The notes beneath the pieces were generated by a model. It was not told the origin of the DNA, did not search any database, and saw only the letters and a program-made list of their open reading frames with translations. Source: Candidatus Saccharimonadota bacterium (GTDB lineage: Bacteria; Patescibacteriota; Saccharimonadia; Saccharimonadales; Saccharimonadaceae). From it: 32,000 nt of DNA. The DNA lies in contig DIRZ01000001.1 in NCBI GenBank assembly GCA_002421785.1, forward strand, positions 120,001-152,000. Direction: 5' to 3'. Position 1 is the stretch's first letter. Every line of letters begins with the position of its first letter. A program made the translations under genes and the position numbers. Below are positions 5,202 to 11,765 of the stretch, piece by piece.

Positions 5202-6359
5202 ATGCACATCGCAATACTTGGCCGCCAGCCAGCTCTCGGCATGGCCGAACTCGAACAACTTTATGGCTCAAGGGCCGTTCGGTGGTTTTCTGATACCACA
5301 GCGATTATCGACTCACCTGCCTTCGACTTCGAACGCCTAGGTGGTACCCAAAAGGCCGGCCGCGTTGTCAGCGAACTTAGGGGTGATTGGCGCCAAGTCA
5401 GCATGAAACTCGTCAGTGCCTATGCGCAGGCCTGGGCAGATCATGAGGGTAAAATTACCCTCGGTATCAGCGCGTACGGCTTCAAGACCACACCGCGGGA
5501 CGTCCAAAAAACCGGCATTATCCTCAAGGGCAAACTCAAAGAACGCGGCGTGAGCCTGCGACTCATCCCCAATACCGACATCGCGCTCAGTAGCGCCACC
5601 AGTCACCACAACAAGCTTGGCCTCAGCGATAATCACGTTGAGCTCATTGTGGTCCGTGGAGCCAACGGCGCTGCGATTATCGCCGAGAGCGTCGGTGCGC
5701 AGAACATTACCGCGCTGGCTGCTCGCGACCAAGGCCGCCCAAAACGCGATGCCTTTGTTGGCATGCTTCCCCCTAAACTTGCTCGAATGATGGTCAACCT
5801 CGCCCCAGTCAAAGCCGGCCGAATCCTCGACCCCTTCTGCGGAACGGGCGTCCTTCTCCAGGAAGCGGCGTTACTGGGCTACGACGTCTACGGTACCGAT
5901 CTTGTCCCGAAGATGGTTCAATTCACCCAGGCAAATTTGAACTGGCTTACCGATACTCACCATGTCACGCCCAACGTGACACTCGATACTGGCGACGCCA
6001 TGACGTACCAATGGCAAGCCCCCGTCAACGCTGTATCCTGCGAAGCATACCTTGGCCAGCCGTTTAGCGCTCCCCCGTCTCCAGGTAAACTTACTGAGGT
6101 TCGTGGCAACTGCAACCACATCATTAGCGAGTTCCTGCGCAACATTGCGCCGCAGCTAGCCCCTGGCACACCCCTCTGTGTCGCCGTGCCCGCATGGCGT
6201 GATAGTGCGGGGCGCTTCACCCATCTCCCCCTTGTCGACAGCGTTGGTTCACTCGGCTTCAACCGCACAACGCTTCGCCACGTCCGCGACGACCAGCTGT
6301 TGTATTACCGTGAAGATCAAGTCGTTGCCCGCGAGCTCCTGCTGCTCACCAAATGCTAA
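5202..6359 (+). CDS. SAM-dependent methyltransferase of the UPF0020 / Trm11-RlmL-like type, 385 aa
   Basis: Motif I reads ILDPFCGTGVLLQEAALLGYDVYGTDL. The canonical (D/N)PPY motif is not obvious; CEAYLGQPF sits at the expected place. The substrate is unknown. Confidence 0.6.
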   Translation: MHIAILGRQPALGMAELEQLYGSRAVRWFSDTTAIIDSPAFDFERLGGTQKAGRVVSELRGDWRQVSMKLVSAYAQAWADHEGKITLGISAYGFKTTPRDVQKTGIILKGKLKERGVSLRLIPNTDIALSSATSHHNKLGLSDNHVELIVVRGANGAAIIAESVGAQNITALAARDQGRPKRDAFVGMLPPKLARMMVNLAPVKAGRILDPFCGTGVLLQEAALLGYDVYGTDLVPKMVQFTQANLNWLTDTHHVTPNVTLDTGDAMTYQWQAPVNAVSCEAYLGQPFSAPPSPGKLTEVRGNCNHIISEFLRNIAPQLAPGTPLCVAVPAWRDSAGRFTHLPLVDSVGSLGFNRTTLRHVRDDQLLYYREDQVVARELLLLTKC

Positions 6360-6392: not shown

Positions 6393-6423
6393 CATAGTAG
6401 CTAATTAAATAAAGGGGTCAAAG

Positions 6424-6972
6424 ATGACGACTGGTGCAATCGGTATGATGGTAGTAATGGTAATTTTCGTGTTACTTTTCGTCGGAGTTTTGCTCTTTGC
6501 AATCCCGGCTATCATTACCAACTGGCAGCTCTTCACCAAAGCCGGCAAACCAGGCTGGGCATCAATTATCCCCGTATATAACACGGTTGTTATGGCCCAA
6601 ATCGGCAAAAAACCCGAATGGATGGGTTGGGTTGCTGGTTTTGCGTCGATTTTTTCAGGCATGCTCGACGGTATCGGCGAAGCAGCAAATGACACCTACG
6701 TCACTCTCGCCTTCTCATCACTCAGCTTCATGATTAACATTGGCGCGCTTGTTCTTACTATCCTTATCCTCATTGGCTTCATCAAGCAGTATCGTCACGC
6801 CGCAGGCGCATCGACCGTCGGATTCTGGGTCTGCTACTTCCTCGTCCCGATTGCCGCAGTATTCATGGTTAAGAATATCGTTCACAAAGGCGCCACAGCC
6901 GACTATGCGCCCGCAACGCCACAACTTCCCGGCCAGCAGCCAGCGCCACCTTACGTGCCACCAGTAGCCTAA
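6424..6972 (+). CDS. Small multi-pass membrane protein, DUF5684-like, with a Pro-rich C-terminal tail
   Basis: The protein is 182 aa. Its motif WQLFTKAGKPGWASIIPVYNTVVMAQIGKKPEWMGW resembles the DUF5684 family. An AGGGG Shine-Dalgarno (SD) sequence lies 6 nt upstream of the ATG. Confidence 0.6.
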   Translation: MTTGAIGMMVVMVIFVLLFVGVLLFAIPAIITNWQLFTKAGKPGWASIIPVYNTVVMAQIGKKPEWMGWVAGFASIFSGMLDGIGEAANDTYVTLAFSSLSFMINIGALVLTILILIGFIKQYRHAAGASTVGFWVCYFLVPIAAVFMVKNIVHKGATADYAPATPQLPGQQPAPPYVPPVA

Positions 6973-6985
6973 CGACCCCCGAGCC

Positions 6986-7010
6986 AAAGAAAAACCCCGA
7001 TTTCTCGGGG
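6986..7010 (-). terminator. Rho-independent terminator downstream of the high-GC gene
   Basis: The stem is CCCCGA / TCGGGG (6995-7000 and 7005-7010). On the minus strand it is followed by TTTTTCTTT (complement of 6986-6994). A second 7-bp hairpin lies at 7040-7058. Confidence 0.5.
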
Positions 7011-7068
7011 TGGGAAGGATTCGCTCCTTGCCTTAGCGGGGTATGTTAACCACATACCGCCTCAGTGA

Positions 7069-7836
7069 TTACCGACCCGGATCCGCGTCCGTTGTCACGG
7101 GCGACTCTGGGTCCGCCGGCATGGTGGGCGCCGGCATCGGATACCGGTCGACCGGAGGCGTGGGCACCATCTGGCACTCCTTGCCTTCGCAGTTCGGCTG
7201 AGGCGGCGTGGGCCGGGAACGATTCCCGCACATCGCATCTCGCGTCGCGTTGAAGCTGGCGCTCTGGCCTACCAGATCGGTGAATACCACACGTGCAGCA
7301 CTGCGCTGCTGGTCGCTGGGCACATCGAGTGCGCACAGGTACGCAACCGCAGCGGCAGCCTGAATGGACTTTGGCGCATCGTCTGCCGTGTACTGGCCGA
7401 CGTAGTCACGCACCAGCTGCTCCGCGGCAAGCTGCTTGGTAGCAGCTACCTCGTAGCGAGTGTACTCTCCGGGAGTCATGCAGATGCGCATGCCCTTGTC
7501 CGCGCCCAGGCCGTCGTAGACGCTCATGCCGCTAGGCACGGTCATCTGCACGCCGGGAAGGCTCTCTCCCCAGCACAGATCGCGCGCAGTGTCCTCGTCG
7601 AAGTACTCGACCGGAGTGGGCGTGGAGGTGGGGGTCGGGTTGACCGCGGTAGACCGAGTGACGCTCACCGGAGGCTGCGACACGTTGTCCTCGGGGGAAC
7701 CCCCGCCTGCCACGAAGTGGTTGTAGGCGAAGATGCCGAGGGCGCCGATCACGAGCACGGCGATGACTGCTGCCCAGAGGGGGCTCCTCTTGGGCTCGAT
7801 GATGCCGTTCTGGTTCATGTAGGAAGGTTCAGACAT
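7069..7836 (-). CDS. High-GC, probably horizontally acquired, membrane-anchored Cys-containing Pro/Thr-rich surface protein, 255 aa
   Basis: This is the only frame with strongly G/C-biased third codon positions. It has a TM anchor (SPLWAAVIAVLVIGALGIFAY), a PTPTSTPTP linker, a ~150-aa domain with 6 Cys, and a Pro-rich tail. An AT-rich upstream region carries TATAAT and a purine-rich SD-like stretch (GAAAGAGAGAG). Confidence 0.7.
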   Translation of the reverse strand: MSEPSYMNQNGIIEPKRSPLWAAVIAVLVIGALGIFAYNHFVAGGGSPEDNVSQPPVSVTRSTAVNPTPTSTPTPVEYFDEDTARDLCWGESLPGVQMTVPSGMSVYDGLGADKGMRICMTPGEYTRYEVAATKQLAAEQLVRDYVGQYTADDAPKSIQAAAAVAYLCALDVPSDQQRSAARVVFTDLVGQSASFNATRDAMCGNRSRPTPPQPNCEGKECQMVPTPPVDRYPMPAPTMPADPESPVTTDADPGR

Positions 7837-7948
7837 GCAACTCTCTCTTTCGTCGGAATATGTCTTGTAGTTTCATTATAGCATAAATAGCATTAAATGT
7901 CAATCGTTTACCCTTGTTGCGCTCCTGCCGCACTCCCCTTTTTACCCC

Positions 7949-7977
7949 TTGACTTGGGTGGGATTTTCCCGTACAAT
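7949..7977 (+). promoter_or_regulatory. Sigma-70-type promoter upstream of rpmA
   Basis: TTGACT (7949-7954), an exact 17-nt spacer, then TACAAT (7972-7977), located 33 nt upstream of the rpmA ATG. Confidence 0.6.
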
Positions 7978-8010: not shown

Positions 8011-8283
8011 ATGTCACACGTTAAAGCAGGTGGTTCAAGCAAGAACATCCACAACAATGCCGGCGCCCGCCTTGGCGTCAAACGTTTTGGTGGCCAAGCC
8101 GTCACTGCCGGACAAGTTCTCGTCCGACAGACCGGTAGCACCAAGATTGCAGGTCCTGGCACATACATCAGCCGTAATTTCACGATTCACGCAGCTGTCG
8201 ATGGTATTGTTGGCTTCAAAAAAGTCAAAAAAGGCTCGTTCACAGGCCGCACCCACCCACGCACACAAGTTACGGTTCAGTAG
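8011..8283 (+). CDS. rpmA: 50S ribosomal protein L27
   Basis: The sequence MSHVKAGGSSKNIHNNAGARLGVKRFGGQAV... is a classic L27 N-terminus. An AAGGAG SD sits at 8001-8006. The ORF-track start at 7897 is an in-frame upstream extension. Confidence 0.95.
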   Translation: MSHVKAGGSSKNIHNNAGARLGVKRFGGQAVTAGQVLVRQTGSTKIAGPGTYISRNFTIHAAVDGIVGFKKVKKGSFTGRTHPRTQVTVQ

Positions 8284-8293
8284 TTCTGCTGAC

Positions 8294-8334
8294 AATAACG
8301 AATACCCCGCCGATATGGCGGGGTATTCGTTATT
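8294..8334. terminator. Perfect 18-bp-stem hairpin between convergent rpmA and the FHA-protein gene
   Basis: AATAACGAATACCCCGCC (8294-8311), a GATAT loop, then GGCGGGGTATTCGTTATT (8317-8334). No flanking U-tract occurs on either strand. The right arm overlaps the FHA gene's stop codon by 2 nt. Confidence 0.6.
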
Positions 8335-9976
8335 AAGAACCTAGTCTTGCACGGCGGTAATCGCGCACCCAAGGCATTCGGTCGAGGGTTTTCTTGACAC
8401 TCACATAGGTACCACCAGCTATGGCGTCATAGTCTTCGCCCTCAACCATCTGCGGCGTCTGGCTGCGATAGTCTACCGGCTTGGCATTGAGGGCACCTGC
8501 TAATATGAGGTCCCGACGGGTGCCATACTTGGTAACCCCGCCACCCTTGACCGCAAGCCGCTCAAGCCACACAGTGCCCGTACTCTCATCTGTCGCAACA
8601 TGCCATTCGATATCTTTGCCCTTGTAGGGCACCAGGTATACCTCTACCCTTGTTTTGCCGAGAATCGTGTGTTCGGTCTGGTAACTCCTGCGGGGCTGCG
8701 CAGTAAAGTCTGGCGTAAAGCCATCCGGTAGTCGCATCGCTTCAATCATTCCCCTAGAAACTTCTGGCTGATATTTAAACCCCTTACCCGACATATATGC
8801 ATAAAGTCCATGGCCGCCAATACACTCCACACTAAGATCAGCCGAGTAAACCTCATCAATGCCGCTACGCTCGTATGCAGACTTCACGAGAAGTGATCGA
8901 AAACTATTTTTAACATCGCGAGGAGCACTCGCCTCAACCTTCAAACGCTCCATTTCTTCAAGCAATGCCGCAATAGATTCATCAGGTTTTGTCGCCTGAG
9001 TATACTGGCCATACTCAACATGCTGACCCTGTTGATCTCGCAGCGGGATATCACCCTTAGAGTAGACGCCGTCCTCGTATAAGTACGGCGACATACGCCA
9101 CCCACCGTCACTCTTCGATTTATAATACATATGCGGCACGATTCTGCCATCGCCATCATCCGCATAACACAATGCATGCGTACGGCCGTCAGATGTATCA
9201 AGAAGCCCGCTAAACATAAACTCCCTTTCACCAACCCCTATACCAACGATTGGGTCGAGTCCTTGAGTTGCGAGTAAATCATGTGTCAAACGAGGCTGTC
9301 GATAATCACTCTTCCATTCAGCCGCTTTTTGCGCAACATATGCTGCATCCAAAATGCGTGAACGTTCGTCAAGTGTTCGAACATCATTTTTTTCGGGTGC
9401 CCCAGTCAAGTACTCCTCTGGTTTGGGTGCATCTCGTCGTACACTCAGTGGTGGCAGTTGACCGCTTGTTATCACTGTTCCATTAAGGGAGTGATCCTCA
9501 AAAGCTAATATACCTTCCTGCTGGTCATACCGAACGGTTACGTGTTTACGTGAAGTAGTTTCCTGCATGTGAGGGAACCGCGCGGGGTGAGTATTACGGC
9601 CGAGAACTACTTCCTCTCCGGCGCGGATACCTTTGTATCCTATATCTTTTTCCCAATCAACTTGCGCGGGGTCGATTGCAAGAAATACAACCGACGGATC
9701 GATTAACTGGCCTTCATATATACTTGCTCCCGCGGCATTTTTTTGAGCAGTACGTAAATCGACGAGCCTAATATGGCTCCCTGGTAGCAATTTGCCGTGT
9801 TGATCATATTCATCACTCGACCCAAACTTCAGGTCAACTACATCACCCGCTCCCCCAGTAAAAGGATATTTCACGGGTATTTGCATGCCCTCACCACTGC
9901 GCAGTTCTGTGCTATGCACAGCCGTATGCCGAGCCTCAAACGTTCTCATATTACGCCGCAACCTGCCTGTGTGCAT
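8333..9976 (-). CDS. FHA-domain protein with a large uncharacterised C-terminal region, up to 547 aa
   Basis: The FHA signature reads VVLGRNTHPARFPHMQETTSRKHVTVRYDQQEGILAFEDHSLNGTVITSG. The remaining ~350 aa match no family I recognise. The start is uncertain: in-frame ATGs occur at 9976, 9949 and 9886. Confidence 0.7.
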   Translation of the reverse strand: MHTGRLRRNMRTFEARHTAVHSTELRSGEGMQIPVKYPFTGGAGDVVDLKFGSSDEYDQHGKLLPGSHIRLVDLRTAQKNAAGASIYEGQLIDPSVVFLAIDPAQVDWEKDIGYKGIRAGEEVVLGRNTHPARFPHMQETTSRKHVTVRYDQQEGILAFEDHSLNGTVITSGQLPPLSVRRDAPKPEEYLTGAPEKNDVRTLDERSRILDAAYVAQKAAEWKSDYRQPRLTHDLLATQGLDPIVGIGVGEREFMFSGLLDTSDGRTHALCYADDGDGRIVPHMYYKSKSDGGWRMSPYLYEDGVYSKGDIPLRDQQGQHVEYGQYTQATKPDESIAALLEEMERLKVEASAPRDVKNSFRSLLVKSAYERSGIDEVYSADLSVECIGGHGLYAYMSGKGFKYQPEVSRGMIEAMRLPDGFTPDFTAQPRRSYQTEHTILGKTRVEVYLVPYKGKDIEWHVATDESTGTVWLERLAVKGGGVTKYGTRRDLILAGALNAKPVDYRSQTPQMVEGEDYDAIAGGTYVSVKKTLDRMPWVRDYRRARLGS

Positions 9977-10550: not shown

Positions 10551-11765
10551 TTAAAACGATGCTCGGGCCGCGTCCATTTGTGGATCACGACTGGCGTTCA
10601 TGTCGTCAGATGTCAGGGGCACGGTTTTGTCAGGCGTAATGCCTTCTTTGGTGATGTTTCTGCCATTCGGCGTGTACCAGCGCGCCACGGTAATCTTGAC
10701 TTGGCGACCATCGGGAAGGTCAATTAATTTCTGCACGGTCCCCTTACCAAACGTTTTTTCACCAACCAGTGTCGCAAGTTTATAGTCTTGCAGCGCACCA
10801 GCGACGATTTCGCTTGCACTCGCGCTGCCACCGTTCACCACTACCACCGTCTTCACGCCCGCCAGTATCGCCGATGAGCCGGCTTTTATCTCGTCAGTAA
10901 CCTTTCCCCCGGTTTTCTCCGTCACGACGACTTTGTTTTCAACCCACAGGCCAGAAATGTCACGCGCGGCAGTGAGATAGCCGCCTCCGTTGTCGCGGAG
11001 ATCAATAATGACGCCACGCACATTCTGCGCCTTAAAGTCCGCAGCGGCAGCTCGAGCAAGCTCATACGTGTCTTGGTCAAACCGAGAGATAATCATTGTG
11101 CCAATTCCATCGCGTACTGATGCGCGGACGCTTTTGTCAGAAACTTTCGCCCTCGTCATCGAAAACTCTTTCGCCTCGGTGCCACGAACAACCGCGATTT
11201 TCACCGACGTCCCCACTTCGCCACGAATCTTCTCTGCCACGCTTGCCGAATCAGCACCGATGACAATCTCGTCATTCACGGCACGAATCACGTCCCCAGC
11301 CTGCAGGCCAGACTTTTCGGCCGGCGAGTCCGGCAGAACACGCAAAATCGTCGGCTGCTTGCTTCGAACGCCAATTTCACAGCCAATTCCACTCACCTCA
11401 CCGATAAGTTGTTTGGCAAATTCCTCGGCCTCTGCTTTATCCATATACACAGTGTGCGGATCGCCTGTCGCAGCTGTCATGCCCCGCGCTGCTCCATCAA
11501 TCAGTGCCTGTGTGTCAAGTTCGCCGTCGTAATTAACCTTCAGTTGCTGGTAGGTTTTTTGGACGATGCCAAGGTCGAGCGTATCAGTACTCACCTTCAG
11601 CCCAAACAGGGGCGCAATTGCTGCGTATAGTTCGCCACTCCGGGTGCCGGCCACAAACCCAACCAGCAGGCATACCGCTATCGTCCCAAAAAATAAGCTC
11701 TTCGATACACTATTATTACGACGCGGTAATGAATTCTGACGCTGCTCAGGCACTGCTTCAGTCAC
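10551..11765 (-). CDS. ctpA: S41 carboxy-terminal processing peptidase with a PDZ domain, 404 aa
   Basis: The PDZ segment is ILRVLPDSPAEKSGLQAGDVIRAVNDE. The catalytic Ser lies in NGGSASASEI and the catalytic Lys in TFGKGTVQ. It has an N-terminal TM anchor and a GTG start preceded by GGGGAG. Confidence 0.85.
   Translation of the reverse strand: MTEAVPEQRQNSLPRRNNSVSKSLFFGTIAVCLLVGFVAGTRSGELYAAIAPLFGLKVSTDTLDLGIVQKTYQQLKVNYDGELDTQALIDGAARGMTAATGDPHTVYMDKAEAEEFAKQLIGEVSGIGCEIGVRSKQPTILRVLPDSPAEKSGLQAGDVIRAVNDEIVIGADSASVAEKIRGEVGTSVKIAVVRGTEAKEFSMTRAKVSDKSVRASVRDGIGTMIISRFDQDTYELARAAAADFKAQNVRGVIIDLRDNGGGYLTAARDISGLWVENKVVVTEKTGGKVTDEIKAGSSAILAGVKTVVVVNGGSASASEIVAGALQDYKLATLVGEKTFGKGTVQKLIDLPDGRQVKITVARWYTPNGRNITKEGITPDKTVPLTSDDMNASRDPQMDAARASF

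Follow-up and report, generated by a model that had tools for sequence, protein, structure and literature searches.

We analysed a window of 32,000 nucleotides from a Candidatus Saccharimonadota bacterium (assembly GCA_002421785.1, contig DIRZ01000001.1, positions 120,001 to 152,000) and focused on one G+C-rich open reading frame (ORF), 7069-7836 on the reverse strand, which starts with ATG and codes 255 aa. The window is otherwise housekeeping in content (SecA, RF, Mur ligase, SerRS, FtsEX, S41 protease, XseAB and rpmA). The ORF, hereafter the target gene, belongs to a self-contained cassette of about 970 bp comprising a consensus promoter, a Shine-Dalgarno (SD) sequence, the ORF, 3' hairpins and a terminator (Table 1), and this cassette is fixed in a variable slot between the DUF5684/methyltransferase genes and rpmA throughout the sampled members of a single clade of wastewater-associated Saccharimonadaceae.

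Table 1. Coordinates of the target gene, its parts and its expression signals in the window (AF2, AlphaFold2; UTR, untranslated region).
Feature	Position	Strand	Basis or remark
Target ORF, 255 aa; orphan membrane-anchored exported protein (predicted)	7069..7836	-	Frame and in-frame indels kept in 14 protein clusters
Short cytoplasmic head, residues 1-18, K16/R17 directly ahead of the helix	7783..7836	-	Sequence; N-in from the positive-inside rule
Single hydrophobic helix, residues 19-42; signal anchor (predicted; or cleaved)	7711..7782	-	AF2/DSSP helix 19-42
Gly/Ser/Pro/Thr-rich stalk, residues 43-77, PTPTSTPTP at 66-74	7606..7710	-	
Conserved ectodomain, residues 78-208, invariant Cys 88, 119, 168, 203	7213..7605	-	87% column identity
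Pro-rich C-terminal tail, residues 209-255	7072..7212	-	Indel-variable CEGKEC segment (C215, C220)
Single-gene cassette	6973..7945	.	Missing from outgroup L018, where DUF5684 directly precedes the rpmA promoter
Consensus sigma-70 promoter TTGACA-17-(TG)TATAAT	7903->7875	-	12/12 match
Purine-rich SD-like run GAAAGAGAGAG	7841..7851	-	4 nt ahead of ATG; invariant in all aligned orthologous loci
3'UTR hairpin GGTATGT-loop-ACATACC	7040..7058	-	Stem covariation among alleles
3'UTR block, 50 nt: small hairpin and intrinsic terminator (stem 7011-6994, T-run)	6985..7034	-	Terminator scan
Divergent native rpmA (L27) promoter TTGACT-17-TACAAT	7949..7977	+	Common to L018, which lacks the target; outside the cassette

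Composition and expression signals of the cassette

The composition of the ORF lies far outside the genome's own range. Its G+C content (GC) was 0.652, compared with a mean of 0.512 (standard deviation 0.026; z 5.3) for the 31 other ORFs of at least 100 aa in the window, its third-position value (GC3) was 0.793, compared with 0.534 on average and at most 0.640 in the same set (standard deviation 0.042; z 6.2), and a 768-nt scan ranked 7041-7808 as the top tetranucleotide-distance outlier of the window (z 6.4). An earlier note on this DNA, made from the sequence alone, had called the ORF a high-GC island; its five hand counts of G+C per 60 nt (44, 39, 23, 33 and 30) proved exact, and the ORF does stand apart by all three measures. 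Its statement that third positions are almost all G or C overshot, the actual figure being 79%. Since GC1 and GC2 showed mild elevation only, the anomaly is not explained by amino-acid content. The two-fold codons nearly all end in C or G, with shares of 100% for TTC (native 32%), 86% for ATC (31%), 100% for AAG (49%) and 83% for GAG (43%). With native codon usage close to flat, a log-likelihood score for codon usage carried no information (z -0.5), and GC3 and per-codon tables were used in its place. The compositional jump, previously placed at both borders of the ORF, is sharp on the right side (G+C 41/60 at 7741-7800, then 28 and 19 in the next lines) but blurred on the left, where the high-GC stretch runs into the DUF5684 gene, whose 3' end is Pro-rich.

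The promoter, SD-like run and terminator pointed out in the earlier note were all found, look native and are conserved. Across aligned loci the -35 box is invariant and the -10 box is kept in 5/7, and the 5'UTR is conserved among orthologous loci. On the other side of the ORF, the hairpin at 7040-7058 showed compensatory stem changes (GTATGT/ACATAC versus GTATGC/GCATAC), and its pattern, searched in 26 loci, was present a single time at each clade locus and a single time in the cassette that occupies the same slot in the outgroup locus L016, and nowhere else. The block at 6985-7034 showed 100% identity in seven lineages that differ by 0.4-0.8 at synonymous sites, a conservation that exceeds that of every coding part of the target gene. 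Folding of the 3'UTR RNA predicted three hairpins (-39.7 kcal/mol, z -2.35). Rfam, at gathering and E-value thresholds, returned zero RNA families in the window or the cassette, and an exact-match metagenome scan for the 6985-7034 block returned nothing, a weak negative given that these collections evidently lack the clade.

Predicted protein and variation of its alleles

The layout of the predicted protein, with an anchor, a Pro/Thr stalk, a Cys-bearing domain and a Pro-rich tail, is as described earlier. Its translation lacks an LPXTG motif and has no Cys closing the hydrophobic segment (no lipobox), and the anchor is predicted to be a plain transmembrane (TM) helix. The six-Cys domain proposed in the earlier note needs revision: six Cys are present (88, 119, 168, 203, 215 and 220), but only the first four are invariant in the family (14/14 alleles), C215 and C220 sitting in an optional 26-aa insert found in 6/14 alleles. 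AlphaFold2 models were of low confidence (predicted local distance difference test, pLDDT, 42.7 with the full alignment and 57.2 with the core) and too poor for pairing the Cys; both agreed on a beta-hairpin and four helices for the ectodomain, a segment of about 130 aa, and Foldseek comparison of the models with the PDB gave no match at E<=1e-3.

Divergence is unevenly spread along the protein. Allele identity and dN/dS were 0.45 and 0.85 for the head and helix (residues 1-44), 0.46 and 0.60 for the stalk (45-77), 0.87 and 0.21 for the ectodomain (78-208), and 0.88 and 0.25 for the tail (209-255). By these ratios, the ectodomain is under purifying selection, and evolution of the anchor and stalk is almost neutral. 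Because the core dN/dS is 0.21 against 0.85 and 0.60, and because promoter, SD and terminator are conserved, the ORF is a genuine protein-coding gene. Two alleles, P0005 and P0006 (L007 about 8700-8760 and L014 about 757-810), carry a premature TAG that cuts the last ~12 residues (SPVTTDDPGR); the old coding sequence past this codon is still alignable, and the extreme C-terminus is therefore dispensable.

Alleles are also mosaic: loci L008 and L012 share 99-100% identity over the anchor and stalk but 82% over the core, and L008 and L014 share 99% over the tail but 63% over the anchor. Homologous recombination between conserved flanks is what reshuffles alleles at hypervariable surface-protein loci, such as those of pilins or outer-surface antigens. 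The target gene resembles them in its conserved flanks and UTRs, its mosaic alleles, the highest variation in the most exposed or least constrained segments, and a neighbouring slot that is itself hypervariable; unlike them, it has no silent cassettes, repeats or dedicated recombinase, and its variation lies in the anchor and stalk, not in the folded domain. A diversity-generating retroelement found no footing either, as the window ORFs contain no reverse transcriptase domain, no repeat pair surrounds the target gene, and the variation sits in the N-terminal anchor and stalk, unlike the C-terminal variable region of a retroelement target.

Distribution, age and relatives

In a set of 5.8 billion proteins, homologues of the target protein amounted to only 14 clusters (90% identity), which are 61-73% identical to the window protein. 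One of them is annotated as Candidatus Saccharibacteria bacterium 32-49-10, and the nearest species-level relatives of the window locus are Ca. Saccharimonas and UBA metagenome-assembled genomes; the genome is thus one of Saccharibacteria, a possibility raised in the earlier note. The clade was sampled at loci L001-L015 and L023-L026 (the last four reached via the DUF5684 neighbour), its members coming from wastewater samples, and L016-L022 served as outgroups. All retrieved carrier contigs showed the same order in one orientation (rpmA, 165-174 bp, target gene, DUF5684, methyltransferase), and no presence/absence polymorphism of the target was seen inside the carrier clade among the sampled loci. 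With the window as reference, the target had dS values of 0.36-0.57 to its orthologues (flanking genes 0.07-0.87), dN values of 0.13-0.20 (flanking genes 0.00-0.06) and dN/dS values of 0.28-0.49 (flanking genes 0.00-0.17). Its synonymous divergence is thus like that of the flanks, and the gene has therefore travelled with them since before the clade diversified. On this comparison the target gene appears to be a clade-level gain and not a recent one at strain or species level. This runs counter to the 'recent' acquisition of the earlier note, since all clade members sampled have an orthologue at this locus, with a GC3 of 0.72-0.80, which is largely the pattern by which the note itself would have judged the gene old.

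Five assemblies (one ENA, one JGI and three separate Logan runs) contain the identical gene together with its two junctions, and ten distinct alleles from other samples occupy the same locus. An assembly chimera, raised earlier as an alternative, or a contaminant fragment of a high-GC organism has in its favour solely the abrupt change of composition at the borders of the ORF; with the junctions spanned in five independent assemblies, further alleles at the same position and conserved UTRs, it is excluded, and we give it practically no credence. Two observations concern the assemblies themselves. In the JGI copy (L002, 7478-8637) the methyltransferase is split into 116 and 288 aa, whereas it is intact at 385 aa in the window, ENA and Logan copies, which is probably a sequencing or assembly frameshift. 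In addition, six clade contigs (L008, L009, L010, L011, L012 and L014) end 40-270 nt upstream of the target start codon, in or near rpmA, which suggests that strain variation of the adjacent hypervariable region breaks assemblies near rpmA.

Outside the clade, seven Saccharimonadaceae outgroups, whose methyltransferase is 64-76% identical, keep the XseA-LPG-MTase...L27...RR-S41-CHAP-FtsXE synteny (MTase, methyltransferase; RR, response regulator), and tblastn found no trace of the target in L016-L022. The methyltransferase directly adjoins rpmA in L017, L019 and L021, and in L018 DUF5684 stands alone, followed by the same rpmA promoter. Relative to these more distant species the target is thus an insertion into retained synteny, in line with the acquisition proposed in the earlier note; the gene is absent from all seven and present in every sampled member of its own clade, so that the gain is one of the clade and not recent. 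The nearest outgroup, UBA6258 (L016), carries in the same slot and orientation a 163-aa orphan lipoprotein ORF (11266-11757, reverse strand) with an LVAGC lipobox, under a promoter resembling the target's consensus type (12030->12002, reverse strand). Neither hhalign nor shuffled local alignments showed any resemblance of the target to the slot protein of L016 or to that of L020. Ahead of the L016 lipoprotein, a small ORF with a hydrophobic stretch seems, as judged by eye, to lie in one transcript with it.

Searches beyond the family were consistently empty. A phmmer search of 1.84 billion representatives returned one true family representative and three further matches (P0015-P0017), which were discarded as spurious, being long tandem-repeat proteins that score via many short stretches. 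A core-domain profile run against the 5.8 billion proteins at E<=10 gave nothing beyond family members; Pfam, NCBIfam and PADLOC left the target unmatched, and at E<=10 the 14 family members gave spurious TM-segment matches alone in Pfam and NCBIfam. A profile search of the PDB gave E >= 0.2, tblastn of phages (50,697 records) and plasmids did not detect the target, and IMG/VR, the GTDB species representatives and JGI metagenomes, scanned by pattern, returned nothing, again a weak negative in collections that evidently lack the clade.

The one match of possible interest was a weak one in PHROGs to phrog_197, a Zot-like toxin (E 1e-3, best E 2e-4, 10/14 family members). On this view the gene would be what is left of a Zot-like (pI) gene of filamentous phages, TM segment plus C-terminal periplasmic part, from a high-GC inovirus. 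We rejected this homology, since 17.8 of the 19.4 bits come from residues 15-71, that is, from the TM helix and linker; moreover, the ectodomain alone does not match phrog_197, the target has no P-loop NTPase domain, and tblastn was blank in the phage records and IMG/VR. A phage origin of this kind seems to us very improbable. An integron-type cassette was likewise dismissed: the ORF has its own promoter, no integrase was found, and the short 3' hairpin lacks a GTTRRRY core, as judged by eye only and with no attC model run.

Origin of the gene and fate of its high GC

The earlier note had favoured a recent transfer from a high-GC actinobacterial host, with expression from a native promoter and a role in host interaction or mimicry. 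The high GC3, the C/G-ending codons and the TM segment with its Pro/Thr linker are compatible with Actinobacteria, as is the wastewater origin of the clade. In activated sludge, CRISPR-spacer and horizontal gene transfer links between Saccharimonadia and Actinomycetota have been reported, including Saccharimonas-Tetrasphaera_A; the transfers were called at >99% nucleotide identity to the donor and concern recombinase-associated DNA (preprint 10.64898/2026.09.16.751625). The target shares habitat and recipient group with these cases, and high-GC partners are plausible, but it has no donor match and its acquisition is older than the clade radiation. Exhaustive searches (the 1.84 and 5.8 billion sets, phages, plasmids, IMG/VR, Pfam, NCBIfam and PDB) gave no actinobacterial or other outside homologue, and no actinobacterial Pfam family matched at E<=10. 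In a clade of dS 0.4-0.9 the gene is fixed, with its synteny kept, and so not recent, and high GC with such codon preferences is not specific to Actinobacteria. We regard the proposal in this form as improbable, and the mimicry role is not supported, nothing found speaking for or against it. An actinobacterial source, unsupported by homology, is nevertheless compatible with the composition and with the reported exchange (10.64898/2026.09.16.751625). What stands of the earlier interpretation is the foreign-like composition, the insertion at clade level, the native-type signals and the anchored Cys/Pro/Thr protein; its recency and its actinobacterial donor are not supported.

Whether the high GC is decaying or maintained bears directly on the origin of the gene. 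Among polarised synonymous singletons in the target, changes from G or C to A or T (S>W) outnumbered the reverse (W>S) by 23 to 5, or by 15 to 5 in a strict count (p = 0.04), compared with 64:59 in the native flanks (LPG 29:23; XseA 31:31; L27 4:5; Fisher's test versus target, p = 0.005), and the target fits the 3.2:1 ratio expected under native mutation pressure. The 547-aa neighbour on the other side of rpmA is equally hypervariable and not GC-rich (GC3 0.45-0.51), so that recombination or hypervariability alone is not the driver of the target's GC. Similarly, the highly expressed rpmA has a GC3 of ~0.5 and no preference for G/C-ending codons, so translational selection for such codons is not at work here. 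The S>W excess, although drawn from small counts, favours amelioration of foreign DNA over recombination- or expression-driven GC. This excess, like the hypervariable neighbour that is not GC-rich, speaks against GC-biased gene conversion as sole cause, without eliminating it; a force favouring GC, with transient polymorphism, is a possible alternative source of the excess. Elsewhere in the neighbourhood, the methyltransferase gene (5202-6359, forward strand) ranks second in the window by GC3 (0.64), and its changes lean from GC to AT by 40:24, and the DUF5684 gene (6424-6972, forward strand), present in 1/7 outgroups (L018), shows 17:4; the compositional history of this neighbourhood may thus be more complex than that of one ORF.

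We lean, with moderate confidence, towards the following explanation: a high-GC ORF of non-identifiable origin was installed under native-type signals in the clade ancestor, before the radiation, and has since been inherited vertically, losing GC slowly, its product being an anchored ectodomain protein. In the cell, the short basic head would remain cytoplasmic, and one helix would anchor the protein N-in/C-out. The flexible Pro/Thr/Ser stalk would project a compact, mostly helical ectodomain of ~130 aa, probably stabilised by two disulfides, off the membrane and into or through the wall. This ectodomain would be the functional part, the anchor and stalk needing no more than to be hydrophobic or flexible, and homologous recombination between clade members would reshuffle the alleles. 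As to its role, the sequence features point most likely to strong expression of a protein that binds at the cell surface or forms part of the envelope, possibly for host-cell contact.

Several points weigh against this explanation. Neither a donor nor any other outside homologue was found in the databases searched and, because of this, the case for a foreign origin is built from composition and distribution. The window contains no tRNA and no mobile-element domains among its ORFs, and no flanking repeats of the cassette were found, only short repeats at chance level. The S>W excess comes from small counts, and AT-biased mutation opposed by selection or biased gene conversion could yield the same. 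The structure models are of low confidence (pLDDT 43 and 57), and topology, disulfides and surface exposure of the protein are predictions. Finally, the L016 slot lipoprotein is also GC3-rich (0.71 versus ~0.50 locally), a homologous 3'UTR hairpin lies in the L016 slot cassette (11209-11228, reverse strand), and synonymous sites are saturated between the carrier clade and the L016 lineage; if the L016 ORF and the target are diverged orthologues, their GC3 is maintained and not ameliorated.

The L016 locus can be read in two ways: an old frame may have received GC-rich ORFs on two occasions, or a single old gene has diverged past recognition with its GC3 maintained. In its full form, the second reading holds that an ancestral, very fast-evolving surface gene has long resided in the rpmA slot, with the L016 lipoprotein as its orthologue, and that its GC3 is actively maintained by mRNA or codon selection, or by GC-biased gene conversion accompanying allelic recombination, with no foreign relic involved. 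Consistently with this, the L016 gene matches the target in slot, orientation, promoter type, 3'UTR hairpin and high GC3, and its protein layout is similar (anchor, S/T/P linker and helical Cys domain). With dS saturated between the lineages a passive GC excess should be gone, the target's dN, ~10x that of the flanks, would erase protein similarity at the distance of L016, and the mosaic alleles and missing donor fit equally. The one-old-gene reading clashes with GC decay, however, because synonymous changes in the target run from GC to AT, with a skew that fits unopposed native mutation and not equilibrium. It also faces the hypervariable 547-aa neighbour that is not GC-rich, the rpmA codon usage that speaks against translational selection, the products of the target and the L016 ORF, which show no similarity, and a slot that is vacant in L017, L019 and L021. 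We take this reading seriously but consider it doubtful.

The first reading can be extended into a broader conjecture, which we think rather unlikely: the rpmA-adjacent slot would be a resident expression frame, with promoter and SD at one end and a covarying hairpin and terminator at the other, refilled repeatedly with GC-rich ORFs from high-GC (actinobacterial) hosts or their mobile elements. The products would be lineage-specific, strongly expressed anchored surface proteins for host contact, and the target and the UBA6258 lipoprotein would be two independent fillings.

A single acquisition in the clade ancestor, the explanation we favour, has a ready counterpart among old ORFan islets. In the framework of Lawrence and Ochman, ORFan genes and islets of atypical composition are reportedly ascribed to old horizontal transfer and undergo amelioration. 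Like these, the target has GC and GC3 values far above the genome, with the excess concentrated at third positions, is clade-restricted, drifts on balance from GC to AT and has no detectable homologues. Unlike them, it is a single gene without integrase, tRNA or repeats, has a perfect native-type promoter, and occupies a slot that holds another GC3-rich orphan in a sister lineage. High-GC Gram-positive bacteria possess exported or anchored proteins with Pro/Thr-rich linkers and paired Cys. The target is like these in its N-terminal anchor, its PT-rich stalk, the even number of conserved ectodomain Cys and the G/C-ending codons, and differs in having no Pfam or NCBIfam membership at E<=10 and no actinobacterial homologue.

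If the source was a host-like high-GC genome and the protein does act at the surface, the target would be a candidate handle by which wastewater Saccharibacteria recognise or hold their partners, and few molecular handles for such contact are known. The locus also provides a worked example in three respects: its compositional island is not recent but old and fixed in a clade, its protein family is taxonomically restricted and conserves an ectodomain with four Cys, and its rpmA is flanked by paired hypervariable gene slots within a housekeeping region of a reduced genome. The 3'UTR hairpin and the GC3 richness common to two unrelated slot genes could help to separate amelioration from maintained GC in Candidate Phyla Radiation (CPR) genomes.

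The second of these slots, on the other side of rpmA, is occupied in the window by the hypervariable 547-aa orphan (8333-9976, reverse strand), which has a weak FHA match (E 0.009). Its counterpart in L006 (5862-7484) is 69% identical with saturated dS, L007 has an unrelated 357-aa ORF in its place (6421-7494), L023 carries a 358-aa ORF at this position (6861-7937), and in the outgroups the interval from rpmA to the response regulator holds further unrelated ORFs or none at all. Variable slots therefore lie on both sides of rpmA. A 21-nt inverted repeat (7117-7137 / 8057-8077, 86% complementary, 919 nt apart), with one arm in the 3' part of the target ORF and the other where the L27 coding sequence begins, is probably a chance match in GC-rich DNA. 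As for rpmA itself, it is solitary in the window, outside any rplU-rpmA operon and under its own promoter (Table 1), and the mechanically called L27 ORF (7897-8283, forward strand) is 38 codons too long, its true start lying at 8011 (MSHVKAGG...).

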